Below are positions 9,770 to 25,479 of a stretch of 64,000 bases of DNA, in pieces (within the stretch, counting starts at the first letter, position 1; every line of letters starts with the position of its first letter). The notes beneath the pieces were generated by a model. The model searched no databases and was not told where the DNA came from. It worked only from the letters and a program-made list of their open reading frames with translations. This stretch comes from an uncultured Bacteroidaceae bacterium (GTDB taxonomy: Bacteria; Bacteroidota; Bacteroidia; Bacteroidales; Bacteroidaceae), in the NCBI GenBank assembly GCA_905235525.1, contig CAJOLW010000025.1, positions 3,452 to 67,451 on the forward strand, given 5' to 3'. The position numbers and the translations under genes are program-made.

Positions 9770-11047
9770 ATGAACAAACTACTTATTTACCTACGCCAGG
9801 CTCTCCACATGATGAGGGAGGAGCGGCTCTTCTCCGCCATTTATATTGCAGGAACAGCGTTGGCGATTGCTTTCACGATGGTCATTGCTGTGGTGTATTA
9901 CGCCAAGTTGGCGGACATCGAGCCGGAAGTGAACAGGAGCCGGACGGTGTATGTATTACCGATGTCAGAGACTCCCAAAAACGGAGCAGAACTTAAAGAA
10001 GAAAAGAATTACTTCCTTTCAGATGAAGTGAAAGAATGGTTCTATCCACTGAAAAGCGTTGAGGTAGTCAGTGCTAACCTTAGATTAGAAGAATGGCACA
10101 GCGATAAAATAAACATTTGGAATAAGGAAAATAAAGATTTTAAACCTATTCCCGTGGCGACAAAAATGGTGGATGAGAATTTCTTCAGAGTCTATCACTT
10201 TCAGTTCGTCTATGGACACCCTTTCACAAAAGAGGAAAAGAATTTGAACATCTGCATCATCAGCCGAGACATTTCCGAGAAATTGTTTGGCAAGGGTGTT
10301 GATCCTGTGGGAAAGATGCTCAATCTCGGCGGTGAATTCCGCATTGTGGGCGTGACGGAACCGACCTCGTCTATTGCAGAACAGAGTTTCGCCCAACTTT
10401 TTGTGTACATAGGCGAAGATGAGGCAAGAGATATGATCACCATTGTTTTGAAAGAAGGGTGCAGCGTTGCCGACTTAGAGAAGGAGTTGGAGGAGGTTGC
10501 CCACAAGCGTAGCGTCAGCAGCAAGGACATGAACTATTCGTTCGAAAACAGAGTATTGCCCCATGCTCAACTCCAAATGTCAGGGGGGCGGACGCTCTCC
10601 TCATGGAAAGACATCCTCATTTCTCTCTTTCCACAAGTGTTTGTGTTACTGCTCGTGCCTGCTCTCAATCTGAGCGGATTGGTGGCAGCACGGATGAAAC
10701 GCCGACTGCCTGAGATGGGGGTTCGTAAAGCATTTGGAGCCAAACGGAAAGAACTGATGCATCAGGTCATCATGGAGAATCTGGTGCTCACCCTTTGTGG
10801 CGGCATTGTCGGTTTGTTCATCACCTGGCTGCTGCTCTATGTATTTCGTTCGTGGGTGTTCTTTGCCATCGGAAGCCAGTTCACCATGATGTCCGAACCG
10901 ACCATTGAGGGCGAAATGCTCTTCTCGCCCTTTATCTTCCTTATCGCCTTTGCGGTATGCCTTATCGTGAACATGATGGCAGCCATCATTCCAGCATGGC
11001 TCAGCCTTCGTCATCCAATTGTAGAATCCATGAATCAGAAGAAATAA
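9770..11047 (+). CDS. MacB/FtsX-type ABC transporter permease
   Basis: Start placed at MNKLLIYLRQAL, because the ORF-track start 9599 reads through the enhancer/promoter. It has an N-terminal TM helix, a large extracytoplasmic domain and a C-terminal FtsX domain (RKAFGAKRKELMHQVIMENLVLTL). Confidence 0.85.
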   Translation: MNKLLIYLRQALHMMREERLFSAIYIAGTALAIAFTMVIAVVYYAKLADIEPEVNRSRTVYVLPMSETPKNGAELKEEKNYFLSDEVKEWFYPLKSVEVVSANLRLEEWHSDKINIWNKENKDFKPIPVATKMVDENFFRVYHFQFVYGHPFTKEEKNLNICIISRDISEKLFGKGVDPVGKMLNLGGEFRIVGVTEPTSSIAEQSFAQLFVYIGEDEARDMITIVLKEGCSVADLEKELEEVAHKRSVSSKDMNYSFENRVLPHAQLQMSGGRTLSSWKDILISLFPQVFVLLLVPALNLSGLVAARMKRRLPEMGVRKAFGAKRKELMHQVIMENLVLTLCGGIVGLFITWLLLYVFRSWVFFAIGSQFTMMSEPTIEGEMLFSPFIFLIAFAVCLIVNMMAAIIPAWLSLRHPIVESMNQKK

Positions 11048-11152
11048 TTATATGTACAATTTGACCATGTACAATGTACCATCTATTTTCCATTCGGGAT
11101 GTACGTAAAAAACAGTTCAATCGCTAAATTGTCAAATAAATTGTAAATCACT
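11048..11152 (+). repeat. 105-nt intercistronic element (head ATGTACAATTTGACCAT, tail AAATTGTAAATCACTATG)
   Basis: Homologous along its length to 12464-12568 and shares head and tail with 62473-62593. Contains the mini-ORF 11052-11108. Confidence 0.7.
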
Positions 11153-12463
11153 ATGATGAAACAGATACTCAACAACCTTTGGAGCCAACGAACACAAAAT
11201 GTATGGCTCTTCATCGAACTGGTGGTGGTGTGCTTTGTAGCATGGACACAACTTGACCCGATTGCCGTGAGATTGTACTATAAGAGTTTGCCGAAAGGCT
11301 TTGACAGCGAACGGTTGGTGGTGGCAAACACCAGAACCACCGATATACAATGGATAGACGATGACTCATACAACACGAATAGAGCATTCGTTCAAAAGAT
11401 GATCAAACAAAAATTACAGACATTAGATGAGGTGGAACAAGTGAGCCTCCTTGGACAAATCCAAGGTTTACTGGCTCCTCGGAACATTTTCAATGGTTCA
11501 TCATGGGTCGATCAGGAAGGTGAACAATACATTTATGGAAATGACACCATCCTTGTCTATGAACTATGCTACATTAAGAACGAGCACTTTTTTGAAACTT
11601 ATGGCATTCAAGTAGCGGATGGAAGCCCTACAGCAAAAGAACTATCGAAGTTGGATGATGATGGTGTGGTCATCAGCCGTTCCATTGCCGAGCACTTCTT
11701 TGGGTCTGCCAAGGATGCCATCGGCAAAGAAATTTTTGAAGCTGACATCATGATGAGTCGCCGCATCCGAGGAGTGGTAGAGGATATTCATGTGTCAGAT
11801 TCCAACTTCGACACCTGGCAAATCTATCAATCCACCTCGGACATTAAAATGATTTTTATTAGTAACCACCTCACCATACGCCTGAAACCTGATGTGAACG
11901 TACAGCAATTTATTGAGAAGTACAACTGTCTTCAACAATTTGCTACAGACGGGCTTGCCATCGCCTTCTTCACACCTTACGAGGACATAGCCACGCCCAA
12001 GAATCAGTTTGCTACGCCTATACTCTCCTACGACTTCAATCTCTCTGTCGCCACCGCCATCTTCTTCCTCATCAACCTCTGCTTGGGTGTGATTGGCACG
12101 TTCTGGATGCAGACCAAGCGGCGAACGGAAGAGTCGGGCATCATGCGGGCATTCGGATCTACGAAGCGACGCATCATGGGAATGTTCTTGGCGGAGGGCT
12201 TCGTGCTCACCACCTTCAGCATGTTCATCACCTGCATCCTCTACCTCAACTATGTGAAGACAGGACTTGGTACCTTGTGCATCCCTCCTCATGAGCCATA
12301 TGCACAACCCGACCCCACATGGGTGGCAGACAAGCCCCTGCACTTCCTCATCATCTCCGGCATCGTCTATCTCATCATACTCATCACTGTCTCCATCGGC
12401 ATCACCATCCCTGCATGGAACATCGTCAGGACAAAGCCTGTGGAAGCACTGAGAGAAGAATAA
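11153..12463 (+). CDS. MacB/FtsX-type ABC transporter permease (paralogue)
   Basis: 436 aa with the same topology as the upstream permease and an FtsX domain MRAFGSTKRRIMGMFLAEGFVLTT. Confidence 0.85.
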   Translation: MMKQILNNLWSQRTQNVWLFIELVVVCFVAWTQLDPIAVRLYYKSLPKGFDSERLVVANTRTTDIQWIDDDSYNTNRAFVQKMIKQKLQTLDEVEQVSLLGQIQGLLAPRNIFNGSSWVDQEGEQYIYGNDTILVYELCYIKNEHFFETYGIQVADGSPTAKELSKLDDDGVVISRSIAEHFFGSAKDAIGKEIFEADIMMSRRIRGVVEDIHVSDSNFDTWQIYQSTSDIKMIFISNHLTIRLKPDVNVQQFIEKYNCLQQFATDGLAIAFFTPYEDIATPKNQFATPILSYDFNLSVATAIFFLINLCLGVIGTFWMQTKRRTEESGIMRAFGSTKRRIMGMFLAEGFVLTTFSMFITCILYLNYVKTGLGTLCIPPHEPYAQPDPTWVADKPLHFLIISGIVYLIILITVSIGITIPAWNIVRTKPVEALREE

Positions 12464-12568
12464 ATATAATGGACAATTTGTACCATGGACAATGGACAAT
12501 TTATGAATTGGATGATTTTCGTAAATGACTCAATCAAAAAAATTAAATAGTAAATTGTAAATATCATT
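12464..12568 (+). repeat. 105-nt intercistronic element (second copy)
   Basis: ATGGACAATTTGTACCATGGACAATGGACAAT ... TAAATAGTAAATTGTAAATATCATTATG. Contains the mini-ORF 12469-12528. Confidence 0.7.
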
Positions 12569-13246
12569 ATGGAAACAATCATTAAATTGACAAACATCAA
12601 CAAGGTGTATCGCACTGAGGAAATTGAGACTCAGGCATTGGAGAACGTGAACATCGAAGTGGAAAAGGGAGAGTTCCTCAGCGTGATGGGACCATCGGGC
12701 TGTGGCAAATCGACTTTGCTCAACATCATGGGACTGCTCGATGAACCCACCAGCGGCGAGATTGAACTGTGTGGCACAAAGATTGATTCCACACTGAGCG
12801 ACAACCGATTGGCAGAGTTCCGCAACAAGACGCTGGGCTTCGTGTTCCAGTCGTTCCACCTCATCAGTTCGCTCAACGTGCTCGACAACGTGCAGTTGCC
12901 ACTCCTCTATCGGGGTGTCGGCTACAGCGAACGCATGAAACGCGCCAAAGAAGTCATTGAGCGAGTGGGACTGTCCCACCGCATGAAACACACACCCGTG
13001 CAACTCTCAGGTGGTCAGTGCCAGCGTGTTGCCATTGCCCGTGCCATCATCGGCAACCCCGAAATCATCCTCGCCGACGAACCGACAGGTAACCTCGACT
13101 CGAAGATGGGTGCCGACATCCTCGGACTGCTCAAGCAACTGAACGAGGAGGATGGACGCACCATCGTGATGGTGACACACAACGAACAGCAGGCACAGCA
13201 AACGAGCAGAATCATCAAGTTCTTGGACGGAAGACAAATCATGTGA
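12569..13246 (+). CDS. ABC transporter ATP-binding protein (MacB/LolD-like)
   Basis: 225 aa with Walker A GPSGCGKSTLL, signature LSGGQCQRVAIARA and Walker B IILADEPTGNLD. Confidence 0.92.
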   Translation: METIIKLTNINKVYRTEEIETQALENVNIEVEKGEFLSVMGPSGCGKSTLLNIMGLLDEPTSGEIELCGTKIDSTLSDNRLAEFRNKTLGFVFQSFHLISSLNVLDNVQLPLLYRGVGYSERMKRAKEVIERVGLSHRMKHTPVQLSGGQCQRVAIARAIIGNPEIILADEPTGNLDSKMGADILGLLKQLNEEDGRTIVMVTHNEQQAQQTSRIIKFLDGRQIM

Positions 13247-13410
13247 TTATGCACAAAAATAATATATATGTTCTACTCTCAACACCTTTGGTGTCTCAAA
13301 AAACAATAATTACCAATAGCATGTCGGCTTGTGTCGCGTCAGCCCATCTTTTATATCTTTTCCATCTTTGTTGATAAATAAACTATTTTTGCTCACCTAC
13401 TTAGTTAAAT

Positions 13411-13460
13411 AATAAAAATGATTTTATTTTGTATAGTGTTTGGCTTTCACTAACTTTGCA
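13411..13460 (+). repeat. 50-nt promoter cassette, copy 1 (-33 TTTG, -7 TAACTTTG)
   Basis: AATAAAAATGATTTTATTTTGTATAGTGTTTGGCTTTCACTAACTTTGCA is near identical to 14226-14275. Confidence 0.7.
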
Positions 13461-13485
13461 GCAGAAACCAATACGATCATGAATC

Positions 13486-14128
13486 ATGACATATCTCAAT
13501 CTGTTCCACAAAGAAGTGACGGAGCGCAAGAAGCGGAAAATAGCCGCATCTCAGCAATCGCCGATGAACTCAAACGACTTTGCGCAGTATATGAAGCACA
13601 ACGTGGAACTGGCAAAGCAGATGTAACCCATTCGAGACAGAGCAGCGGGTTGCTGAGCAACTTGCCAAGTCACTGGACTTTTGGATTCCTATGCCAGAAG
13701 TATTTAATCTTGGCGTTCCAGGACCAAGTGGTCATGAGAACGACACCTACGTTGCAGAAAAAGTCATCTATAAGGTGAACAATCTGCTGAATAGTGGAAG
13801 CATTGTCGGACTTCTGCAAAAAATCATGATGCACAACACAATTTTTCCAGACACCGCTTACTCCTTCTATGGCTTTGCAGGCTTTGATGGTCGCACGGTT
13901 CAGCCAATCATTGTTCAGCCCCGTGTCGCTAATGCCCACCCAGCAACGCAGATTATGATTGATACTTATATGGCAGCCTTGGGATTTGAGAAGGCTGCCG
14001 ATGAAGGACGTTTCACTAATGGAGAGTACGACGTATGGGATCTCTTACCTCGTAATGTCCTGACAGACAACGAGGGCGACATTTTTGTTGTTGATGCGGA
14101 GATAAAACATATCGTTGTAAAACCATGA
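13486..14128 (+). pseudogene. frame-disrupted gene of unknown function with a kinase-like catalytic-loop motif
   Basis: Frame 1 reads MTYLNLFHKEVTERKKRKIAASQQSPMNSNDFAQYMKHNVELAKQM and stops at 13626. Frame 2 is open from 13595 and continues ...NPFETEQRVAEQLAKSLDFWIPMPEVFNLG... to 14128. The C-terminus reads WDLLPRNVLTDNEGDIFVVDAEI. Confidence 0.45.
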
Positions 14129-14225
14129 TTAAACAGATTTGACTTTTTCATTCTTCCTTTTGTTTTTCCTTCATTAATTGCACATTGAGCATCAATCCAA
14201 GTTAGGATGCGCCTCAACAATAAAA

Positions 14226-14275
14226 ATAAAAATGATTTTATTTTGTATAGTGTTCAACTTTCACTAACTTTGCAC
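14226..14275 (+). repeat. 50-nt promoter cassette, copy 2
   Basis: AATAAAAATGATTTTATTTTGTATAGTGTTCAACTTTCACTAACTTTGCA, 40 nt upstream of the SGNH gene start. Confidence 0.7.
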
Positions 14276-14314
14276 ATGGCAAAAGACAAATAGAAAATTA
14301 CTAAACCTATTTAT

Positions 14315-14970
14315 TTGATGAAAAAGTTTTTTATCCTTATGCTGATGGCTGCTATGGTGGTGGCTGCATCGGCACAAACAAAGAAGGTGTCCATTTTGGG
14401 CGACTCTTATTCTACATTCCAGGGTATCATCCCTGCTAATTACTCTACCTTCTACCCCAACAACCAGAATGATGTGAAGGAGGTGGAGCAGACGTGGTGG
14501 AGCCTCTACATCAAGGCGAAGGGCTATGCGCTGGAAAAAAATGACTCTTGGGGCGGCACCACCATTTGCGGCACGGGATATGGTCGCATGGATTCGTCAC
14601 GCAGCAACTTCATCTCACGTGTGGACAGTCTGGGCAATCCCGACATCATCTTTGCGGCACGAACGATGCTTGGGCAAACTCTCCAGTGGGCGAGTATCAG
14701 TACTCGGATTGGACGAAGGACGATTGCAAGAATTTCCGCCCTGCCCTCGCCTGCCTGTTTGACATGCTTCAGAAGCGTTATCCAAAGGCAAAACTGGTCT
14801 CTCTCCTGAACTCTGAGTTGCGGGAACCTATCAACGAGTCAATGCGTGAGGTGTGCAAGCACTACAAAGTGCAACTCATCGAACTGCACGACATCGAGAA
14901 GCAGAACGGTCACCCATCCATCAGCGGCATGAAGAGCATCTGCGAACAATTGGTGGAAGCAGGGTTGTAA
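14315..14970 (+). pseudogene. SGNH/GDSL-family hydrolase, frameshifted
   Basis: The N-terminal ORF has a signal peptide and ILGDSYS (block I). After PDIIF it leaves frame. The overlapping ORF 14548-14970 carries CGTNDAWAN (block III) and HPS (block V-like). One extra T in the TTT run at about 14650 would restore PDIIFCGTNDAW. Confidence 0.65.
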
Positions 14971-15086: not shown

Positions 15087-15243
15087 AGTTTTTAACTTTT
15101 CACTTTTTCATTACGTTGGCTCCGCCGAAGTTAAGATGCACCTCAACAATAGTTTTCATTAGAAAAACAAAGAAAAAGGTTCTATCCCAATACCTTGAAA
15201 AAATAATCTTAGACTTGTCTTTGGAAATAAAGGGAATCATTCG

Positions 15244-15251
15244 TAACTTTG
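15244..15251 (+). promoter_or_regulatory. Bacteroidota -7 box (TAACTTTG) for the ORF6N gene
   Basis: TAACTTTGTAGGCGAAAAGA lies 45 nt upstream of ATG 15296. The same 20-mer, with one mismatch, precedes the helicase gene. Confidence 0.5.
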
Positions 15252-15295
15252 TAGGCGAAAAGAGTATAAGGCATAGCGAAGGAGGAAGCGGAAAT

Positions 15296-15925
15296 ATGAA
15301 CAACATTCAGATTATTCAGAGTAAAATATATGAAATACGTGGTCAACGCGTGATGCTTGATCGGGATTTGGCAGAACTTTATCAAGTTACAACAGGAAAC
15401 CTGAATAAAGCAGTGAAGCGAAACATCAGACGCTTTCCGCCAGATTTTATGTTCCAGTTAACAAAAAAAGAATTTGAATTCTTGAAACAATCTTTGATAT
15501 TCCAAAATGGAATTTCAAACGATAAGGTAAAGGATGCCAAGGGTATTCTTCGGACAGGCCGTGGTGGTGTTCGTCAATTGCCCTATGCTTTCACTGAACA
15601 GGGGTTAGCGATGCTCTCTGGCATTCTGAACAGCGACGTTGCTATTGATGTGAACATATCTATCATGCGTGCTTTCGTTGCTATTCGCCGCATGGCGGCT
15701 TCCCTTCAGCCCTCCAGCCCATCTGCTGACATCACTCAATTACGCAAAGATTTCGAAGATTTGAAACTTGACATTGAGGACATTTTTCATGACCAGAACG
15801 ACATCAACGAGTCAACTCGTATGCAGTTGGAAAACATCACACTGGCACTTGCCGAGTTACAAGGAACTTCACATGAGCAGAAGCCACGGAGAAGAATTGG
15901 ATTTGTGCAGGATGAAAACAGTTAA
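15296..15925 (+). CDS. ORF6N domain (KilA-N/Bro-N-like DNA-binding) protein
   Basis: Start placed at [60 protein letters not shown], the ORF6N signature. The C-terminal half is a coiled coil. Confidence 0.8.
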
Positions 15926-15989
15926 ATGAGATTCCCCTTCACAATACAAACAAATTCTTTTTATATGTGGAAAAATGAAATAAAATGAT

Positions 15990-15997
15990 TAACTTTG
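15990..15997 (+). promoter_or_regulatory. Bacteroidota -7 box (TAACTTTG) for the helicase-methylase array
   Basis: TAACTTTGTGGGCGAAAAGA lies 20 nt upstream of ATG 16017. Confidence 0.5.
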
Positions 15998-16016
15998 TGG
16001 GCGAAAAGAAAAATAT

Positions 16017-18860
16017 ATGTTTTATAAACTCATAGAAAAGAAGCGCAATGAATGGCTGGCATCGTCAGAATGCACAATCTCCGAATTGCTCAAATATATT
16101 GAACAACGCGGAATGATGCGTGATGCACAGTTGGAAGCCATCAAGACATATTTGTTTCTGAAGATTGCCTGTCAGAACAGACCTTTATGGGAACTATTTG
16201 TGAATGGTGTCTTCAATGACACCAACATCGGACAAGTGGAACTGACAGAGACGGCACGGGAAATCTTCAGAAAGAATAAAGCCGCTGTTGCCTTGTTCCA
16301 GTATTCGAGGTTGGAAGATAAAGGAGGAAATCAACTGGCTCCCAAACTGGAGCAGTTCATCAAGCAGAATGCCGACAAGATAGATTACGAGACGGCTTTC
16401 AAAGAGATTTTCTATGGGGTCAACTACACAGACTATCTTTTCAGCCTTCCGATGGGTGCTGGCAAAACCTACTTGATGGCAGCATTCATTTATCTGGACC
16501 TTTATTTTGCGCAGAAAGATCCTGATCACCCATGCTTTGCCCATAACTTCATGGTGATGGCACCTTCTGGCTTGAAATCTTCTATCGTGCCCAGTTTGAA
16601 GCATATCAAGGAGTTTGACCCATCATGGATTATACCTGAGCCAACAGCCTCACAACTTCGGAGACTCATTAAGTTTGAGATACTCGATGAACAGAAGGCT
16701 GCCAACAAGAGCAATCGTGTCAAGAATCCCAATGCACAGAAAATCAACAACCATCAACCCTTGGAAGACTTGATGGGGTTGGTGGCAATCACTAATGCCG
16801 AGAAGGTCATCCTCGACCATTACGAGGAAAGCCTGATGCCTCTTTTTATTTCTCAGCAGAACTTTTATAAGGCTACTTGTGCCAATGAATTGCGTGAAAT
16901 CATTGGCAAAATTCCTCATTTAGCCATCTATATTGACGAGGTGCATCATGCAGCCGATGGAGACATCAAACTGAGGCAGGTTATCAATGACGAATGGACA
17001 AAAAGCAACACTTTCAATTCCGTGTTGGGTTTCTCTGGCACTCCTTATCTGGACAAGGCAGAACAGGTCTTGCTGGCAGGGGAGTTCTCCATTAAAAACA
17101 CCGACCTCGCCAACGTTGTGTATTATTACCCTTTGATAGAGGGCATCGGCAATTTTCTGAAAAAACCTGAGGTGAATTATACAGACAATGACATACAAAC
17201 GATTGTAACAAACGGAGTCAGCGAGTTTCTTGACCACTATCGTGACACCCTCTATGCTAATGGAACTTGTGCCAAGTTGGCAATCTATTGCGGACAGATT
17301 GAGACACTTGAAGAGGTCATCTATCCGCTTGTGGCAGAAATCGTGGCTTCATACGGACTGAATCCCACCGATGTCATTCTGAAATATCATGGAGGCAACA
17401 GGCAATATCCTCAACCGGAAGGGTCAGAGGCAGCGTTTGCTTCGCTCGACACGACCATTTCCAAAATAAAAATAGTTCTCCTTGTTCAGATAGGTAAGGA
17501 AGGTTGGGACTGCAAGAGCCTGACGGGAGTCATCCTGCCCCAAAAAGGTGTCTGCCCTACGAACATGGTGTTGCAGACCTCATGCCGCTGTCTGCGTCAA
17601 GTGGTCAAGAATAGCACAGAAACGGCTTTAATCTGGCTGAACAAATGGAATGCTGACACGTTGAATCAGCAATTGAAAAGGCAACAAAACATCACATTGA
17701 AGGAGTTTGGCAGCAAACAACCATCTGTCAAGAATATTGAAAGATTCTCTCGCATGGAGCACATGCAGGTGCCACCCATTGACTTCTACCAACTGAAAGT
17801 CAATTATGAGACCTTGGTGATAGATGAAACCAACGAGCCTGCACAAAGGCTGAAGGATTCTTCATTGCTTTCTGAAGCAGACGTTTCCCTGATTCATCAG
17901 CAGGACATGGAAAGCAATCTGCTCGCTAGTTTCCAACAGGAATCAACAGAAGAAGTCTGCGTGTCCTTCCGTTGGTGGATTCATCAGATAGCCAAGGAGA
18001 GTTTTGGCACTTTGAAAATAGCCGACCTGAAAACTTGTGAAGCGGAACTGCAGAGCATTTTTGAACAAACGACGATGGAGAAGGATGGCACAAGGATAGA
18101 AAATCCGAAGTATGACCATCAGCGCATCCGTTCGCTCATCCGTCAGGCTTTTGTACCTCTGCGTAACATTCTGGTGAAAGAAGAAATTGTGCCAGAGCAA
18201 GCACAACTCTTGCAGATTGAAAAACTGACCTCGCCTGTAGAAAACAGCGAAAAATATTATCCTAATCAGCAAGTTGTCCATGAAATCATGGAATGGGACA
18301 AGAAGCCTCCACAGCGAGAACAAAGTCCGGAAGTGCTCAAGATGCTGGAGCAACTGAAAGCAATGGGGCAGGATGTGTCAGCCATCCAACCGCAAAAAGA
18401 CCCATATCCAGAGCGTACACAGACCTATCACTACTTACCTTATCGTTTCGACAGCTATCTGGAGAAGAAATTCCTTTCAGAAGAGATCTTGCCCATTATC
18501 AGGGACAAGCATCTAGAGGTGTATTTCAATGGCGATGACACACTGACAGAGTTCAAAATCAACTGCTACAGCAAGCAAGGAGATGGCTGGCGATATATTG
18601 GTAAGTACGTACCAGATTTTTTGCTGCTCAGTCGTAATGAAGACAAGCAAATTGACAAGGTGATTATCATCGAGACCAAAGGTGAAGGCTTTGCAGCCAA
18701 GTTCAAGGATAAACTCAAATTCATGTCAGCGTTTGTGGAGAAGAACAATGACAAGTTTGGTTATAAGCGTTTTGACTTCCTCTATTTGGAGGATGTACTA
18801 AAGCAAGAGGAGCGCAGAAGAAAGACGCTGAAAGCCATCCAAGATTTCTTTAACATGTAA
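16017..18860 (+). CDS. Type III restriction Res-like SF2 helicase with C-terminal PD-(D/E)xK nuclease motif
   Basis: 947 aa with motif I SLPMGAGKTYLM, motif II IYIDEVHHA, GFSGTP, KEGWDCKSL and motif VI QTSCRCLRQ. The C-terminus reads KYVPDFLLLS...KVIIIETKGEGF. Confidence 0.8.
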   Translation: MFYKLIEKKRNEWLASSECTISELLKYIEQRGMMRDAQLEAIKTYLFLKIACQNRPLWELFVNGVFNDTNIGQVELTETAREIFRKNKAAVALFQYSRLEDKGGNQLAPKLEQFIKQNADKIDYETAFKEIFYGVNYTDYLFSLPMGAGKTYLMAAFIYLDLYFAQKDPDHPCFAHNFMVMAPSGLKSSIVPSLKHIKEFDPSWIIPEPTASQLRRLIKFEILDEQKAANKSNRVKNPNAQKINNHQPLEDLMGLVAITNAEKVILDHYEESLMPLFISQQNFYKATCANELREIIGKIPHLAIYIDEVHHAADGDIKLRQVINDEWTKSNTFNSVLGFSGTPYLDKAEQVLLAGEFSIKNTDLANVVYYYPLIEGIGNFLKKPEVNYTDNDIQTIVTNGVSEFLDHYRDTLYANGTCAKLAIYCGQIETLEEVIYPLVAEIVASYGLNPTDVILKYHGGNRQYPQPEGSEAAFASLDTTISKIKIVLLVQIGKEGWDCKSLTGVILPQKGVCPTNMVLQTSCRCLRQVVKNSTETALIWLNKWNADTLNQQLKRQQNITLKEFGSKQPSVKNIERFSRMEHMQVPPIDFYQLKVNYETLVIDETNEPAQRLKDSSLLSEADVSLIHQQDMESNLLASFQQESTEEVCVSFRWWIHQIAKESFGTLKIADLKTCEAELQSIFEQTTMEKDGTRIENPKYDHQRIRSLIRQAFVPLRNILVKEEIVPEQAQLLQIEKLTSPVENSEKYYPNQQVVHEIMEWDKKPPQREQSPEVLKMLEQLKAMGQDVSAIQPQKDPYPERTQTYHYLPYRFDSYLEKKFLSEEILPIIRDKHLEVYFNGDDTLTEFKINCYSKQGDGWRYIGKYVPDFLLLSRNEDKQIDKVIIIETKGEGFAAKFKDKLKFMSAFVEKNNDKFGYKRFDFLYLEDVLKQEERRRKTLKAIQDFFNM

Positions 18861-18873
18861 ACAACCGTAAGTT

Positions 18874-20843
18874 ATGGCCATCAAATACGTTCCCTATTAT
18901 CCCAATACGCTTGAGGGACAAGCAATCTTAGATAATTTTGTGCGTACCAAGCGAGTGCTTCGCTATCGTGACAACGATCAAGTCATAGAGCGTGTTCAGC
19001 GAGGCATGCCCCTTTATGAGATGGAGCAGAAAGAGCAGATTGGCACGAATCCACATCACAACATGGTGATTCGTGGTGAGTGCCTTTCGGCTTGTGCCTA
19101 TCTGAGAGATCAAGGGGTACAGGTTGATCTTGTGTATATTGATCCACCCTTTGCTAGTGGTGCCGACTATGCAAAAAAAGTGTATATTCGCCGTAATCCT
19201 AAAATTGCAGAAGCCATTGCAAAGGCAGAAGAGGAACTTGACTTGGAAGAGTTAAGAACTTTCGAGGAGAAAATGTATGGGGATGTATGGGACAAAGAAA
19301 AATATTTAAATTGGATGTATGAAAATCTCATGGCAATAAAATGAGTGATGAGGCTAGTATTTACGTACACCTAGATTATAACATTGTTCATTATGTCAAA
19401 GTTTTGATGGATGAGATTTTTGGAGGGTATGAATTTACAGAAATCACTTGGATTTGTGGACTAATGGGTGCGGGTGAACGATTTCCAAAATCTCATGAAA
19501 CAATATTGTATTATTACAAAGCAGATAGTGTTTTTAATATACAAACAAGGTTGGGATATTCCGATAGAATTACGAAAGCATTACAAAAAGACGAAAAAGG
19601 ATGGTTTTACACAAGAGGTCGTGAGAGTAGTGGAGGGATGAACTGTCTGAAAACTTATATTTGTGAGAATCCATTGTTAACAAAGGAGGAAGCAATAAAA
19701 TGGGCAGAAAAGAATAGACCACAACCATGTTGGGATACTTGGATTGGAAAACCTGAGATTGCCAAAACCTATGGAGATTATGGTACAGGAACTTATGCAT
19801 ACACTCCTAATGAAAATGTAAATTATGCCACTCAGAAACCAGAAGCCCTCCTTGAACGTGTCATTAAAGCCAGCAGTGATGAGGGGATGCTTGTTGCCGA
19901 CTTCTTTGGTGGCAGTGGCGTGACAGCAGCGGTGGCCAATAAGTTGGGACGCAATTTTATTCATTGCGATATAGGTATCAATAGCATTCAGACAGCCAGA
20001 GACCGTTTGGTGGCAGACAAGGCAGAGTTTGAAGTGTTGGAGGTGAAGGATGGTGTATCGCTTTATCGCAATCCTGTTCAGACAATGGATAAGTTGAAAA
20101 GTCTGATTCAAGGTCTGCGCAACGAGGACGTGCTGGATAAATTCTGGGAAGGAAGCATTATGGATACGAAATTTGGCATGATGCCAGTTTATCTGCCCAA
20201 CCTGATGGACAGCAGTACCCGTCTGCTTGATATACCTCAGATGAACCGCATCATCCGTGAGGCTTTGCCTGACCTGCCAGACGACATCCAACGTGTCATT
20301 GTCTATTACATTGACATCACAGACCGCAACGATATAGAGCAATTTATCAAGGAACAGAATGACCAGACAACAATTGACATAGAATTGCGTGACTTGAAGC
20401 AGGTGCTGGATGATATAGTATTAGAGGATGAGGCTGAATGGGAAGTAAGTGAAACGCATGATTCCATTTGGTCGGGGTGGCAAGTGGAAATGAAGAGTTT
20501 CCACAGCGACCGTGTGCTGAAAAAGATAGAGGAAGTGAACCTGAAAGCCGAACAGCAAGCCATGCAGAAAAGGGCAAAAGGTAAAGACGTGCCTTTCAAC
20601 CCCATCAGAATCAGCGATGAGGGACTGGAAACCATCGAATGGGTGAGCCTTGACTGCACCAATGCCGACAAGCAGGCTCCTTGGCACAGTGATGCAGAAG
20701 TGAAGATTGACCGTCTCGGCTTTGTCATCCTCAATGGCAAGAAGACTGCAAACTTTTGGGATGCCACCATCCGAAGCAACCAGAAGCCTCTCCGTATGAA
20801 AATCCGCAATATTTGTGGAGATGAAACTATGTTTATAATATAA
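18874..20843 (+). pseudogene. beta-class N6-adenine/N4-cytosine DNA methyltransferase (Type III Mod-like), split into 156-aa and 500-aa ORFs
   Basis: ORF1 carries motif IV VDLVYIDPPFASGADY and ends ...NLMAIK*. ORF2 (frame -1) starts [28 protein letters not shown] and carries motif [26 protein letters not shown]. One extra A in the AAAA run at 19338-19341 would fuse them. Confidence 0.8.
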
Positions 20844-20853
20844 ATTATTGTTT

Positions 20854-21831
20854 ATGAGTCAAGATTCAACCGATAGCAAAGGAAATCTCGTGTCTAAATA
20901 TGGGACGTTGTTTCTTATTGTTTTGTCTATTTTTACCATCTTATTTTGTGTTTTTTTATATTTCGCAAATGTGGAATTTCGTAATTCACAGGAAGAAATA
21001 AAGAAAAGTTATGTTGACCATATACGAAGAGCCGATAGTTTATATTTCGACATGGTTGTATATAATAAGGAATATGTTCATGGTGTTAGTGATATAAATG
21101 CAGCCATTCTTACTGATTCATTAGTAAAGAACGCTATCATTCCAAATGGTGGACTCGCACAGTCACAATATCAGAATCTTTCAACTATTATTTCAAGCCA
21201 TTTCGAGAATATAGAAAAACTGCATGCTACATACGATGACAAAATGACGCGTGATTCTCTACTTTTAGTGACAGAGCGACAAGTTTTAGAAGGACAAACA
21301 AAGACAATGCTTGACTTGCATCTGAACAAAATAGAGCATGAATATAGTAATATTACAATATGGGCAGCAGTGCTAACAATTCTTTTTCTTGTATTTAGTT
21401 TTTATTCTATTTTCAAAATGGATGAGTTGATTCAGCAAGGAAATGAAGGCGTTAAAAGCATTAGACAATTACATACAAATGGAGAAAACTTAATTAATTC
21501 AATTTCAGAAAAAGGAGAGAAAACTTTCAAGAAAGCGGATGAGAAATTGAAAAATCTTGTTAATAGCCAACAACAAATAGTGGCTGAAACAATTGGACAG
21601 ACAAATAGTATGCTTGAGAATCAAAAAGAGCAGTATAGACAAATAATAAATAAATTAGAAGACATAAACAAAACTCGAGATGAATACACGAAAATTCTAA
21701 GTGATCAGTTGGAACAAATAGAAACAAAATATGACAAGATGTTACAAGAAAAAATTAAAGAACTGTATTCTGATATGGAGGCGATAAGACAATTTATGGA
21801 TGATAATGGTATTAAGCATCAGGATATATAA
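20854..21831 (+). CDS. hypothetical 2-TM protein with cytoplasmic coiled-coil tail
   Basis: ATG at 20854 (the track start 20848 is TTG). TM1 is LFLIVLSIFTILFCVFLYFANV, followed by a roughly 140-aa loop domain. TM2 is ITIWAAVLTILFLVFSFYSIF, followed by a roughly 130-aa K/E/Q-rich heptad-like tail. Very AT-rich. Confidence 0.6.
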   Translation: MSQDSTDSKGNLVSKYGTLFLIVLSIFTILFCVFLYFANVEFRNSQEEIKKSYVDHIRRADSLYFDMVVYNKEYVHGVSDINAAILTDSLVKNAIIPNGGLAQSQYQNLSTIISSHFENIEKLHATYDDKMTRDSLLLVTERQVLEGQTKTMLDLHLNKIEHEYSNITIWAAVLTILFLVFSFYSIFKMDELIQQGNEGVKSIRQLHTNGENLINSISEKGEKTFKKADEKLKNLVNSQQQIVAETIGQTNSMLENQKEQYRQIINKLEDINKTRDEYTKILSDQLEQIETKYDKMLQEKIKELYSDMEAIRQFMDDNGIKHQDI

Positions 21832-21846
21832 TAAAAGAGAGGTGTC

Positions 21847-22311
21847 ATGGCTGATTTATTTATAGATTCGTCAAATGCACTAGCAAGTGCAGAAAAAGAG
21901 CAAAGGAAGATCTCTCAAAAAGAATTTGAGATAAAACTTGCAGATATTAATAACAGATATTCTGCAACAAATGGTAGTAGTTCCTATTATTATAACCAAC
22001 AGAAGAAAATGCTGTTGGAAACAGAGGTATCTTCATATAAGAACCAGCGTGACAATTATATAAACGTGGCATTATTATATGCATTGAATTTAGGAGAATT
22101 GGAAGTTATGAGGAACGAAACTTATTCAAGGGCTTCTATAGCACTTGCGAGTATATGTACTTTTCTTACAATACAAAATATCCATATATCATTATCTTAT
22201 TCTATTATTCAGAAAATCTGTTCATTGAGTTCTATACTTACATTACATCCTCGTGATTTTTTCTCATTAAGACAATCGTTGAATAATCTAAAAACATTTT
22301 TGGGGATCTAA
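21847..22311 (+). CDS. hypothetical 154-aa protein (N-terminal helical region, hydrophobic C-terminal half)
   Basis: The ORF starts 15 nt after the previous gene and has the same AT-rich composition. I recognise no motif. Confidence 0.5.
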   Translation: MADLFIDSSNALASAEKEQRKISQKEFEIKLADINNRYSATNGSSSYYYNQQKKMLLETEVSSYKNQRDNYINVALLYALNLGELEVMRNETYSRASIALASICTFLTIQNIHISLSYSIIQKICSLSSILTLHPRDFFSLRQSLNNLKTFLGI

Positions 22312-22420
22312 CGGTATTTCTTGTTATAAAGGTGGATATGAGAAACAAGAATAAAATACTTAATACAGACAGTGAGCGAACAAAGATATTGTTCGAAGTA
22401 GAATCTAAGATAAATAATTG

Positions 22421-22460
22421 AAAAGCCTCAATGTCAAACAAAGGACTTTGGGGCTTTTTC
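22421..22460 (+). terminator. weak hairpin plus T-run closing the island
   Basis: AAAAGCC...(24-nt loop)...GGCTTTTT. The stem is short and imperfect. Confidence 0.3.
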
Positions 22461-22515: not shown

Positions 22516-22523
22516 TACCTTTG
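22516..22523 (+). promoter_or_regulatory. Bacteroidota -7 box (TACCTTTG) for leuS
   Basis: 29 nt upstream of ATG 22552. Confidence 0.5.
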
Positions 22524-22551: not shown

Positions 22552-25479
22552 ATGGAATACAATTTTAGAGAGATTGAGCAGAAATGGCAACAGCGATGGG
22601 TGGAAGAGAAGACCTATCAGGTTGCTGAGGACAAGAGCAAACCGAAGTTTTATGTGTTGAACATGTTCCCCTACCCCAGTGGGGCGGGTCTGCATGTGGG
22701 ACACCCATTAGGATATATTGCGAGTGACATCTATGCGCGTTTCAAGCGTCTGCAGGGATATAACGTGCTGAACCCGATGGGGTATGATGCGTATGGTCTG
22801 CCTGCTGAACAGTATGCGATTCAGACGGGTCAGCACCCTGAGAAGACGACCTTCCAGAACATTGACCGCTATCGTGAGCAACTGGACAAGATTGGCTTCT
22901 GCTTTGACTGGGACAGAGAGGTGAGAACTTGTGCACCTGGCTACTACAAGTGGACGCAATGGGCGTTCCAGAAGATGTTCAACTCTTTTTTCTGTCTGAA
23001 AGAGCAGAAGGCAATGCCGATTGAGAAACTCATCCAGCGTTTCGAAACCAAGGGAACGCTGAGCGACGATGGCGGCACGGTGCAGGTGGCTTGTACGGAA
23101 GAACTGCACTTCACTGCTGAGGAGTGGAACTCGTGGGACGAGAAGAAGAAGAGTGACGTGCTGATGAACTACAGGATTGCCTTCATGGGCGAGACGATGG
23201 TGAACTGGTGTGCTGGACTGGGTACCGTGCTGGCGAATGACGAGGTGGTTGACGGTGTGAGTGTGCGTGGCGGTTTCCCTGTGGAGCAGAAGAAGATGAG
23301 GCAGTGGTGCTTGAGAGTGAGTGCCTACGCACAGCGACTTTTGGACGGACTGGACACGATAGAGTGGAGCGACAGCATCAAGGAGACGCAGAAGAACTGG
23401 ATTGGCCGAAGTGAAGGTACGGAAGTGGAATTCAAGATTGCCAGCCCCCTCCCAACCTCCCCCAAGGGGGAGGAGAACCATCCGGATGGCAATCACTCTC
23501 CTTTGGGGGAAACGGAAGGGGCCTCCTTCACCATCTTCACCACCCGTGCCGACACGATGTTTGGTGTCACCTTCATGGTGCTGGCTCCTGAGAGTGAACT
23601 GGTGGAGAAAGTGACGACGGCTGAACAGAAGGCTGCCGTGGAGGAATATATCAAGTATGTGAAGGGCCGCACGGAGCGTGAGCGCATGATCGACCACAAG
23701 GTAACGGGTGTGTTCTCGGGTTCTTACGCCATCAATCCTTTCACTGGCGAGAAAAATCCTATCTGGATTTCTGAGTATGTATTGGCAGGTTACGGTACGG
23801 GTGCCATCATGGCTGTGCCTGCGCATGACAGCCGCGACTACGCTTTTGCCAAGCATTTCGGCTTGCCGATTATTCCGCTGATTGAAGGGGCTGACGTGAG
23901 CGAGGAGAGTTATGATGCCAAGGAGGGTATCGTGACGAACTCACCACGGAAGGATGTGAAGCCATACATCGACTTCAGCCTCAACGGACTGACCGTGAAG
24001 GAGGCGATTGCTGCCACGAAGAAGTATGTGACGGAGACTGGTATTGGTCGTGTGAAGGTGAACTACCGTCTGCGTGATGCCATCTTCTCCCGTCAGCGTT
24101 ATTGGGGCGAGCCCTTCCCTGTCTATTACAAGAACGGCATCCCGACGATGATTCCAGAGGAGTGCTTGCCTATCGAACTGCCGGAGGTGGATAAGTTCCT
24201 GCCTACGGAGACGGGTGAACCGCCTCTGGGCAATGCTACCGTATGGGCTTGGGATGAGGTGAACAGGAAGATTGTGGAAAACACGAAGATTGACAACAAG
24301 ACGGTGTTCCCTATTGAACTCTACACCATGCCTGGCTTTGCAGGCAGTTCGGCTTACTATCTGCGCTATATGGATCCACATAACGACAAGGCACTGGTGA
24401 GCAAGGAGGCTGACGAATATTGGCAGAATGTGGACTTGTATGTGGGTGGTAGCGAACACGCTACGGGTCACTTGATTTACAGCCGCTTCTGGAACAAGTT
24501 CCTCTTCGACCTTGGCGTATCCTGCAAGGAAGAACCTTTCCAGAAATTGATTAACCAAGGTATGATTCAGGGCAGGAGCAACTTCGTGTATCGCATCAAG
24601 GACACGAACACGTTTGTCTCCTTCGACAAGAAAGATGGCTATGACGTGACACCTATCCATGTGGATGTGAACATCGTGAGTGCCGATGTGCTGGATGTGG
24701 AGGCCTTCAAGGCTTGGCGTCCTGAGTACAACACCGCCGAGTTCATCTTGAACGACGAGGGCAAGTACATCTGCGGATGGGCTGTGGAGAAGATGTCGAA
24801 GAGTATGTTCAACGTGGTGAACCCTGATATGATTGTGGAGAAGTTTGGTGCTGACACGCTGCGTCTCTACGAGATGTTCCTCGGTCCTGTGGAGCAGAGT
24901 AAACCTTGGGATACCAATGGCATTGACGGTTGCCACAGATTCCTGAAGAAATTGTGGAAGTTCATGACCACAGAGGAAGGTGCCATCAACGCTACCGACG
25001 GTGCTGCCTCGAAGGAGGAACTCAAGGCACTGCACACTCTCATCAAGAAAGAGACAGCCGACATCGAAGCGTTCTCATACAACACAACCATTGCTGCCTT
25101 CATGGTGTGCCTCAACGAACTGACAAAGTTGAAGAGCGAGAGCCGTGAGGTGAAGGAGACGCTGGCCATCCTGCTGGCACCGTTCTGTCCTCATGTGGCT
25201 GAAGAGTTCTGGCACCTGCTGGGACATGACACCACGGTGTGCGACGCTCCATGGCCATCCTTCAACGAAGACTACCTGAAGGAAGACTCGGTGAAGATGA
25301 TGGTGGCGTTCAATGGTAAGGCACGCTTCCCACTGGAGTTCCCCGCTGACGTGACTAAGGAGGAAGCGGAGAAGGCTGCGCTTGAAAGCCCACAATCAGC
25401 CAAGTGGATGGAAGGATTCACGGTGGCAAAGGTGATTGTGGTGCCGGGCAAGATGATTAATGTGGTATTAAAAAAGTGA
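22552..25479 (+). CDS. leuS: leucine--tRNA ligase
   Basis: 975 aa with HIGH-type motif [19 protein letters not shown] motif VEKMSKSMF and editing-domain sequence [21 protein letters not shown]. Confidence 0.97.
23443..23524. repeat. G/C-hairpin element with inverted arms, in frame inside leuS
   Basis: AGCCCCCTCCCAACCTCCCCCAAGGGGGAGGAG ... CTCTCCTTTGGGGGAAACGGAAGGGGCCT. It encodes [27 protein letters not shown] between the conserved GTEVEF and [10 protein letters not shown] blocks. Confidence 0.7.

Follow-up and report, generated by a model that had tools for sequence, protein, structure and literature searches.

We analyzed a 64,000-nucleotide (nt) stretch of DNA from an uncultured Bacteroidaceae bacterium (contig CAJOLW010000025.1), hereafter called the window, and in particular a defense locus consisting of a restriction operon, res-mod, and two small genes behind it, here named g5 and g6. 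The restriction operon is an ordinary member of its family, and its gene order, its split methylase gene and the repeated promoter word in front of it are all explained. The new element is the g5-g6 pair, an uncharacterized, portable unit that sits at the tails of varied restriction operons in Bacteroidales of gut and rumen. With moderate confidence we read the locus as three independent layers, namely a Type III-like res-mod core, an occasional ORF6N neighbor and a portable g5-g6 cassette that would provide a second line of defense.

The following features form the core of the locus:

16017-18860, + strand: res, 947 amino acids (aa), Type III-like, predicted superfamily 2 (SF2) helicase with a C-terminal PD-(D/E)xK endonuclease
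18874-20843, + strand: mod, read in two frames here (18874-19344 and 19341-20843), 658 aa when intact
19437-19824, + strand: hypervariable central region of mod, presumed target-recognition domain, approximately residues 200-320 of the intact protein
20854-21831, + strand: g5, 325 aa counted from the ATG, predicted all-helical membrane protein
21847-22311, + strand: g6, 154 aa, putative partner of g5
20835-22406, + strand: cargo segment swapped in comparison with the closest species, delimited by blastn breakpoints

The gaps between the genes are 13 nt (res-mod), 10 nt (mod-g5) and 15 nt (g5-g6). Genes, motifs, gaps and both copies of a repeated 20-nt word were all recovered where an initial annotation of this DNA had placed them, and we agree with its description of a defense locus in which Res combines an SF2 helicase with a C-terminal PD-(D/E)xK nuclease and Mod is a beta-class methyltransferase.

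The g5-g6 Pair Is Absent From Related Restriction Operons

The initial annotation had gone further and proposed that the restriction genes, g5, g6 and the ORF6N gene upstream make up one composite defense system. For the relatives of res-mod, a scan with one genome per species found 252 loci, and the best 80 were kept. Neither tblastn nor profile hidden Markov models (HMMs) detected g5 or g6 in any of these 80 related loci, and ORF6N accompanies the operon in two of them. The composite system thus did not hold up. As the outcome that would count against its proposal, the annotation had named Res and Mod proteins of ordinary Type III families together with downstream genes missing from related loci; the second half of this is what we found. 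Since g5-g6 is absent from 80/80 related res-mod loci, it stands outside this restriction system.

Related loci carry other genes at the same place. A co-oriented gene starts within 150 nt after mod in 50/71 loci, with a median gap of 20 nt. Downstream of mod and at the res-mod junction, 123 encoded proteins were collected, and sequence clustering divided them into 98 groups. Recognizable cargo includes SIR2/Dsr2-like proteins (6), AbiH (5), RhuM/PDC-S05 (5), AAA_21/AriA-like proteins (5-6), Fic (3), NACHT/STAND (2) and SMC_N-type ATPases (7). This variety indicates that the position after mod is a hypervariable cargo slot, filled mostly with stand-alone defense genes. The closest species (L007; loci and contigs are referred to by our own numbers) illustrates the exchange. 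Its synteny is lipase, ORF6N, res, mod, X and leuS, where X is a 1182-aa SIR2/Dsr2-like gene matching Pfam SIR2_2 and PADLOC Dsr2/ThsA. Homology between the window and L007 is lost 9 nt ahead of the mod stop codon and regained 145 nt upstream of leuS.

The g5-g6 Cassette Is Found Behind Several Different Operons

Contexts of g5-g6 were collected by exact look-ups and from 66 metagenome loci. In total 82 loci were tabulated, and in about 72 of them the contig includes a gene upstream of the cassette. Where a g5 locus is long enough, g6 nearly always follows directly, with a gap of -11 to +26 nt. In many loci the start and stop codons overlap or are separated by a few nt, as would be expected of coupled expression. 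The co-oriented gene directly upstream of g5 is a restriction or methylase gene in 45/82 loci, distributed as follows:

Type ISP: 28 loci
Type I: 6 loci, with the cassette after the last gene of the operon (hsdM in L087, hsdR in L118)
The res-mod family of the window: 5 loci in three lineages
1286-aa Type IIG-like fusion: 2 loci
SMC-like ATPase/methyltransferase cluster: 4 loci

Type ISP enzymes were recognized by their Mrr_cat_2, helicase, ISP_coupler, N6_Mtase and Type_ISP_C domains, and the loci in which they precede g5-g6 often lie on mobilizable elements with relaxase and MobC genes. Further contexts are a TOTE primase-helicase gene, DUF4062/TIR genes behind Type I or IIG clusters, and GmrSD. 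At least five different operon architectures host g5-g6.

Pairwise comparisons delimited the mobile unit. The Type I locus L087 and the SMC/methylase locus L088 are 89.5% identical at the DNA level over 1406 bp and have nothing else in common; the common stretch runs from 21 nt inside g5 to 4 nt past the g6 stop codon. L137 and L138 are 98% identical over g5-g6 and 4.6 kb downstream. A 3.7-kb gene for a 1286-aa Type IIG-like restriction-methylase (L137, 5096-8821) is missing in L138, and in L137 it sits exactly between a common 287-bp upstream segment and g5. In addition, each of the three res-mod-linked g5 copies is closest to a copy from another context. These copies are not mutual nearest relatives and hence were acquired independently. 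When N-terminal divergence was controlled for, similarity of the g5 tail gave no signal for the type of upstream enzyme (coefficient -0.03). Together, the two locus pairs, the g5 relationships and the tail regression argue against a specific partnership with any one restriction enzyme. We favor the view that g5-g6 is a self-contained module that would use the 3' ends of restriction operons as a landing and expression site. The pair is absent from the 72,556 plasmid records of PLSDB and was found in 1 of 2.9 million viral contigs.

Some of these loci contain further conserved genes. In L088 (4034-9011; also in L089, L090 and L108) a five-gene cluster precedes g5-g6. Its products are an SMC_N-like ATPase (671 aa), three proteins of 193, 240 and 121 aa, and a methyltransferase (436 aa) that matches N6_N4_Mtase/UPF0020 only faintly. 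The cluster looks like another uncharacterized methylase-containing defense system. In L137, L138 and L140 (approximately 10387-14937) g6 is followed by two large conserved genes of 656-662 aa and 827-831 aa. Two g5-g6-bearing Type I operons have an AAA_13 ATPase gene between hsdS and hsdM (L087, 6149-7333; L091, 3109-4254), so these loci may stack two accessory modules.

More distant g5-like proteins were seen as well. In L161 (1759-8301) such proteins, with 29-39% identity over the region of the second transmembrane (TM) segment, come after a Detocs-like trio of 1120 aa, 150 aa and a 419-aa receiver plus PNP_UDP_1 protein, and a 160-aa gene also follows there. In L167 (3593-7313) a g5-like protein comes after an 878-aa NB-ARC/NACHT STAND NTPase. 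As an effector, the membrane module of g5 may have a wider role.

The g5 and g6 Proteins

The third gene of the array had been described as encoding a coiled-coil protein with two TM segments and the fourth as encoding 154 aa, and both hydropathy and open reading frame (ORF) calls agree. Hydrophobic segments of g5 span residues 11-42 (TM1) and 163-190 (TM2); g6 has none. The AlphaFold2 model of g5 (predicted local distance difference test, pLDDT, of 75) consists of two long helices, 17-97 and 105-319. According to this model, the membrane would separate a helical hairpin of about 120 residues from a coiled-coil tail of about 130 residues. Across 40 homologues with 36-95% identity, the hairpin and TM2 are the best-conserved parts, with a nearly unchanged LHLNKIEHEYSNIT-WAAVLTILFLVFSFYS block in TM2, and the coiled-coil tail varies in sequence and length. 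We found 540 homologues of g5 and, by a word-seeded search, 19 of g6, all of them unnamed. In g6 the motif Q-x-QISQKEFE and other helical motifs are conserved, and the polar residues Q19, S23, Q24, E26, E28, N35, R68 and E86 are invariant; no catalytic motif could be recognized.

That both genes lie outside known families, as had been suggested, was borne out by uninformative searches of Pfam, NCBIfam, PADLOC, PHROGs and PDB. No match to g6 was obtained in any of the five. For g5, no consistent family emerged in Pfam, NCBIfam or PADLOC and no informative match in PHROGs. Foldseek against PDB gave nothing below E=2.6, and the g5 profile matched only coiled-coil noise in PDB (apolipoproteins, designed bundles). 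Our literature search found no description of a g5-like, restriction-linked membrane protein.

Four candidate identities of g5 were rejected. A relationship to SLATT proteins was not accepted, since NCBIfam SLATT_1 scored 16.3 bits against a cut-off of 41, 4/40 homologues matched at E<=0.05 and there was no Pfam SLATT match. In a library of 5027 models, Zorya ZorA was matched at E=7e-4 and Kiwa KwaA at E=7e-3. Five of the 40 homologues match NCBIfam ZorA_3, far below the cut-off, and g6 does not match the partner proteins KwaB or ZorB. Matches to AI-2E/YtvI were below threshold and inconsistent across the 40 homologues.

The res-mod Operon Belongs to a Divergent Type III-Like Family

Across the best 80 loci, which come from Prevotellaceae, Bacteroidaceae, Muribaculaceae, Alistipes, Parabacteroides, Capnocytophaga and others, Res identity ranges from 54 to 94%. 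The wider family is large. A collection clustered at 90% contains 5217 Res homologues at E<=1e-5, which form 853 clusters at 50% identity, and full-length homologues reach down to about 30% identity. NCBI labels the Res homologues just as "DEAD/DEAH box helicase family protein". The initial annotation had pointed out that the gene order is the reverse of canonical Type III loci. It is correct that res precedes mod; this is no peculiarity of the window, however, since the same order on the same strand is present in 79/79 relatives that have both genes on the contig (one contig ends before mod) and is consequently the family norm. The two genes are directly adjacent in 67/79 loci. In the other 12/79, among them L011, L012, L016, L018, L038, L046, L061 and L084, one or two genes lie in between, for instance genes of the RhuM family (337-399 aa) or, in L084, an ORF6N gene, which makes the res-mod junction a second cargo site.

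In Res the motifs GAGKT (residue 147), DEVH (307), EGWDCKS (495), QTSCRCLRQ (520), VPDF (865) and IIIETKG (883) follow one another. Among 22 diverse Res members down to 30% identity the Walker A motif GAGKT, DE-HH, GTP, EGW-C and R-CLR are invariant, and likewise the nuclease residues P866, D867, E886 and K888. The Pfam ResIII model, which is generic for SF2 enzymes, is matched with a passing 29.5 bits. RE_endonuc is matched weakly, by 6/22 members with a best E-value of 5.5e-5. For profile-profile comparison we used canonical Type III Res proteins from four sources, namely P1, Neisseria, Lactococcus and a planctomycete. The C-terminal nuclease aligned with them in register (hhalign E=1e-4, 57% probability), including the blocks YDS-x-x-E, PDF and ETK.

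Mod carries DPPF (motif IV) at residue 90 of its N-terminal piece and FFGGSG (motif I) at residue 188 of its C-terminal piece, so that motif IV comes before motif I. Pfam N6_N4_Mtase (E=4e-28) is spread over both pieces, with profile positions 1-36 in the first and 44-219 in the second. PADLOC MTase_III models match at E=8e-28 and 8e-27, and one MTase_II model scores better (1e-32). By motifs and profiles Mod is a predicted beta-class N6/N4 DNA methyltransferase. Among 73 Mods, column conservation drops to 0.17-0.49 at residues ~200-320, as compared to 0.8-0.96 in the flanks, and DNA homology between the window and L007 is interrupted precisely at 19437-19824. Type III Mod proteins exchange recognition domains by such central swaps.

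The likeness to Type III systems such as EcoP1I, EcoP15I and LlaFI-like enzymes is thus one of architecture. There is an adjacent pair of res and mod genes with similar subunit sizes (Res 947 vs 970 aa, Mod 658 vs ~646 aa), Res has N-terminal SF2 motor motifs followed by a C-terminal PD-(D/E)xK nuclease, and Mod is of the beta class with a central, variable recognition domain. Other features set the family apart. It runs res to mod, whereas the P1, Lactococcus and Neisseria examples run mod to res, which is the usual but not strictly defining order; the Type III review that we searched had no passage on gene order. A variable cargo gene follows mod in about 70% of the loci. The helicase half of Res is too diverged to be recognized by curated Res models or by similarity to the EcoP1I and EcoP15I motors. 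Here several results weigh against a Type III assignment. The PADLOC REase_III models did not match the window Res, and in PDB neither phmmer with Res nor the 22-member family profile found an EcoP15I chain. Comparison of the helicase part with EcoP1I Res by hhalign reached 18% probability, covering motifs I-II, and an AlphaFold2 model of Res from a 10-sequence alignment was unusable (pLDDT 41). The sole NCBIfam match of Res was C-terminal, to "BPTD_3080 family restriction endonuclease", with 30 bits against a cut-off of 800, and no paper found in our literature search mentions BPTD_3080. Membership of Type III is accordingly clear in architecture and a weak case in sequence, and we call the system divergent Type III-like. 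Taken together, homology and gene order identify the core as a putative two-gene operon of a large, divergent and under-annotated Type III-like family of Bacteroidota.

The Split in mod Is Private to This Assembly

The two mod reading frames overlap via ATGA. The split methylase that had been listed as a feature of the locus is indeed present in the window; it is no feature of the system. The exact Res protein of the window is encoded on 8 public metagenome contigs, and in six contigs with identical Res (L001-L006, 99.6-100% identical to the window) mod is one 658-aa ORF and the lipase gene upstream is one 219-aa ORF. Compared to L001, the window has zero substitutions over 22.8 kb, and the sole differences are three short deletions:

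After 11402: 6 bp (ATGTCC)
After 14653: 7 bp (GTTTTTG), breaking the GDSL lipase gene
After 19340: 7 bp (AAGTGTG), breaking mod

The last of these falls in the best-conserved stretch of Mod (residues 141-160, column conservation 0.96). The mod split is therefore a 7-bp deletion private to this assembly. Zero substitutions next to three gaps of 6-7 bp suggest an artefact of assembly or processing rather than natural decay. This leaves two possibilities, a system that is switched off in this strain or an error in the assembly.

Promoters and the ORF6N Gene

The initial annotation had also noticed that the ORF6N gene and res are preceded by an almost identical 20-nt word and had taken this as a sign of co-regulation. 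The 64 kb contain the word TAACTTTGTRGGCGAAAAGA exactly twice, each time on the + strand (15244 and 15990), and 100 shuffles did not produce it even with 3 mismatches allowed. The consensus of the Bacteroidota -7 promoter element is TAnnTTTG. By comparison with it, TAACTTTGTRGGCGAAAAGA is predicted to be a -7 box (its first 8 nt, TAACTTTG) followed by 12 leader bases:

15220-15263, + strand: putative ORF6N promoter, with a -33-like TTTG (15220-15223), a 20-nt spacer, the -7 box TAACTTTG (15244-15251) and 12 leader bases
15296-15925, + strand: ORF6N gene (KilA-N-like), 209 aa, ATG placed at 15296
15990-16009, + strand: -7 box and leader of the putative res promoter, with TAACTTTG at 15990-15997 and the res ATG at 16017

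TTTG or TGTG lies 20 nt upstream of both -7 boxes, and in an alignment of the two upstream regions the likeness reaches the -33 region and is conserved in L007. Among the 80 related loci, a dozen have a TAnnTTTG box 26-28 nt before the res ATG, and 38/80 have one anywhere in the 70 nt upstream of res. The 12-nt extension is retained solely in L007, the nearest species, with one mismatch in the ORF6N copy. We therefore rejected TAACTTTGTRGGCGAAAAGA as a family-wide shared operator, since only the -7 box recurs in relatives. The two look-alike promoters are real; the family as a whole gives no support for co-regulation through a dedicated shared operator.

The ORF6N protein itself was readily assigned. 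It matches Pfam ORF6N (E=8.5e-33, 113 bits against a cut-off of 27.8), three PADLOC PDC-S05 models (E=1e-50 to 3e-35) and PHROGs families annotated as anti-repressor (phrog_4792, E=6.8e-39). Its gene accompanies res-mod in L007 and also in L084, there placed between the two genes. It is an occasional neighbor of the res-mod family and no fixed member. In five related loci, RhuM-type PDC-S05 proteins are encoded at the res-mod junction or in the slot behind mod. In contrast to validated defense systems, PDC-S05 is a single-gene candidate family, and the window protein is the short ORF6N form.

Flanking Genes

The block is bordered by the following features:

Ending at 13246: ABC ATPase gene, upstream border
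13691-14128, + strand: Kinase-PolyVal gene, 145 aa, Pfam E=1.9e-20
14315-14970, + strand: GDSL-like lipase gene in two frames, broken by the 7-bp deletion after 14653
22516-22523: -7 box TACCTTTG of leuS, 29 nt before the leuS ATG
Starting at 22552: leuS, downstream border

As had been stated before, the block contains no integrase or transposase; the ORF list and a Pfam scan revealed none between 13246 and 22552. Since leuS has its own -7 box, the defense block is transcriptionally separate from it. The Kinase-PolyVal domain is typical of polyvalent proteins of phages and conjugative elements. The corresponding ORF has 216 aa in the related contig L003, and the copy in the window is therefore probably truncated. 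It may be a leftover of an older mobile element at this site.

Discussion

We propose the following model for the three layers. Mod would recognize a short asymmetric site and methylate it, with a specificity set by its swappable central domain, as its architecture suggests. Res would be active solely in complex with Mod and cut unmodified DNA, which is consistent with its architecture and its conserved catalytic residues. The ORF6N gene would be expressed from its own near-consensus Bacteroidota promoter, which resembles that of res. The g5-g6 cassette (1.4 kb) is probably co-transcribed with res-mod and moves among operons without co-evolving with any of them. In this model g5 would be an effector inserted in the membrane, whose conserved TM2 and outward-facing hairpin compromise the membrane, and g6 a cytoplasmic protein that attaches to g5 at its variable coiled-coil tail; tail and g6 would serve as sensor or restraint. 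The outcome would be a backup of the abortive-infection type that is expressed alongside restriction. From sequence and neighborhood we infer that g5-g6 functions as an autonomous, probably membrane-acting second-line defense module. A more specialized version is a tentative and rather unlikely one: g5-g6 would be a previously unrecognized defense module, widespread among gut and rumen Bacteroidales, that is specialized in the tails of motor-driven restriction operons (Type I, ISP, IIG-like, III-like) as a backup, either sensing disabled or failed restriction or independently aborting infection at the membrane.

Several points weigh against the defense model for g5-g6. Many of the metagenome loci are near-duplicates, and the count of 45 restriction-linked loci therefore overstates the number of independent events. 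About one third of the tabulated loci do not abut a restriction gene, and some have housekeeping or mobile-element neighbors. The protein g5 is made of long helices, and its weak matches to ZorA, SLATT, AI-2E and YtvI are sub-threshold and inconsistent. Neither g5 nor g6 has a recognizable domain, so that position and neighborhood are the whole of the evidence for a role in defense or at the membrane, and the single indication of co-transcription with mod is the 10-nt gap.

How tightly the cassette is bound to its restriction operon is the point on which two other explanations differ from ours. The four genes res, mod, g5 and g6 lie on the same strand with gaps of 13, 10 and 15 nt, this array is kept in six near-identical contigs, and the res-mod family is found with g5-g6 in two other lineages (L094/L095/L107 and L126). 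One could therefore imagine a composite Type III-like machine of four genes, or of five with ORF6N, in which g5 and g6 are integral subunits. We consider this highly improbable, since tblastn and HMM searches found neither gene in the 80 species-level relatives, the closest species L007 has a SIR2 gene in the same place, the pair accompanies no fewer than four unrelated restriction architectures and elsewhere stands without one, and the three res-mod-linked g5 copies were acquired independently. A looser bond would make g5-g6 an accessory or guard of ATP-dependent restriction enzymes, acting as a membrane tether that would position translocating enzymes where DNA enters, or as a PrrC-like latent effector. 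In the guard version the restriction complex would restrain g5-g6, and a phage anti-restriction protein that disables the enzyme would release it. PrrC of EcoprrI offers a precedent (PMC12707154), and the Type I loci L087 and L091 have their AAA_13 gene in the PrrC-equivalent position between hsdS and hsdM. Moreover, the cassette is at the 3' end of motor-driven operons (Type I, ISP, III-like) in 39/82 loci and its expression looks tightly coupled. However, the g5 tail does not track the partner type (coefficient -0.03), which leans against a specific partnership, near-identical cassettes are found behind different systems or none (L137 vs L138, 98% DNA identity), and some follow non-restriction systems (TOTE and DUF4062/TIR, and in distant relatives Detocs-like and STAND). 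We regard an accessory or guard role as decidedly unlikely.

The two remaining explanations concern the origin and the state of the locus. The g5-g6 pair could be a selfish or element-borne module, such as a toxin-antitoxin-like addiction pair or an entry-exclusion function of mobilizable elements, that travels along at the ends of operons because these both tolerate and transcribe an insertion. Exactly two ORFs make up the mobile unit, a membrane protein and a small protein in an overlapping layout. Many copies lie on mobilizable elements beside relaxase and MobC genes, and integrase, resolvase, relaxase and conjugative-transposon genes occur in other neighborhoods. Yet the neighbors are overwhelmingly defense and not transfer genes, both the window and L094 have the cassette on the chromosome, with mobility genes lacking in its vicinity, and it is found in 0/72,556 plasmid records and 1 of 2.9 million viral contigs. 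To us a selfish module seems improbable, about as much as a guard. Finally, the locus of this strain could be a decaying remnant in which the mod deletion is real, modification is lost, restriction is lost with it since Res would depend on Mod by analogy to Type III, and the remaining genes are drifting. The deletion hits the best-conserved part of Mod, and two more private deletions of 6-7 bp lie in the window, one of them breaking the GDSL lipase gene at 14653. On the other hand, zero substitutions compared to L001 over 22.8 kb make the three deletions look artefactual, res, g5 and g6 are intact, and mod is intact in six other contigs with identical Res. Decay is a possible though not a likely explanation. 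We hence keep to a res-mod core, an occasional ORF6N neighbor and a portable cassette as three independent layers.

Correct labeling of the Type III-like family would improve censuses of defense systems in gut and rumen genomes. Among Bacteroidales of the human gut and the rumen, the g5-g6 proteins account for hundreds of protein clusters. Should they be a defense module, they would represent a new membrane-based mechanism and a form of layered immunity wired into restriction operons, in a phylum, the Bacteroidota, with few experimentally tested defense systems. The hypervariable slot (98 clusters from 123 proteins) is a practical discovery resource; over 40 different gene families, many without annotation, occupy its position after mod, which could be mined for new defense genes.

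In its design, the pair of a membrane protein and a soluble partner in defense islands is reminiscent of lambda RexA/RexB, Kiwa KwaA/KwaB and Zorya ZorA/ZorB. There is no significant homology to these systems, and g5 has 2 TM segments, not 4, so that the likeness is an analogy of design.

A closer parallel in genomic organization is given by defense genes that accompany restriction operons. In Campylobacter, "restriction-linked ORFs" (rlo) are defense genes attached to restriction operons. PrrC lies within the Type IC EcoprrI locus and is activated when T4 Stp inhibits the enzyme (PMC12707154), and TgvAB is nested inside the Type I cluster of V. cholerae VPI-2 (PMC11411939). As in these cases, g5-g6 represents unrelated genes, putatively of defense, that are co-oriented with and packed against restriction genes and vary between strains. 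The pair differs from PrrC, rlo and TgvAB in that it has no detectable sequence or domain in common with them and lies at the 3' end of the operon, not between hsd genes, and in that one and the same cassette serves five operon types.

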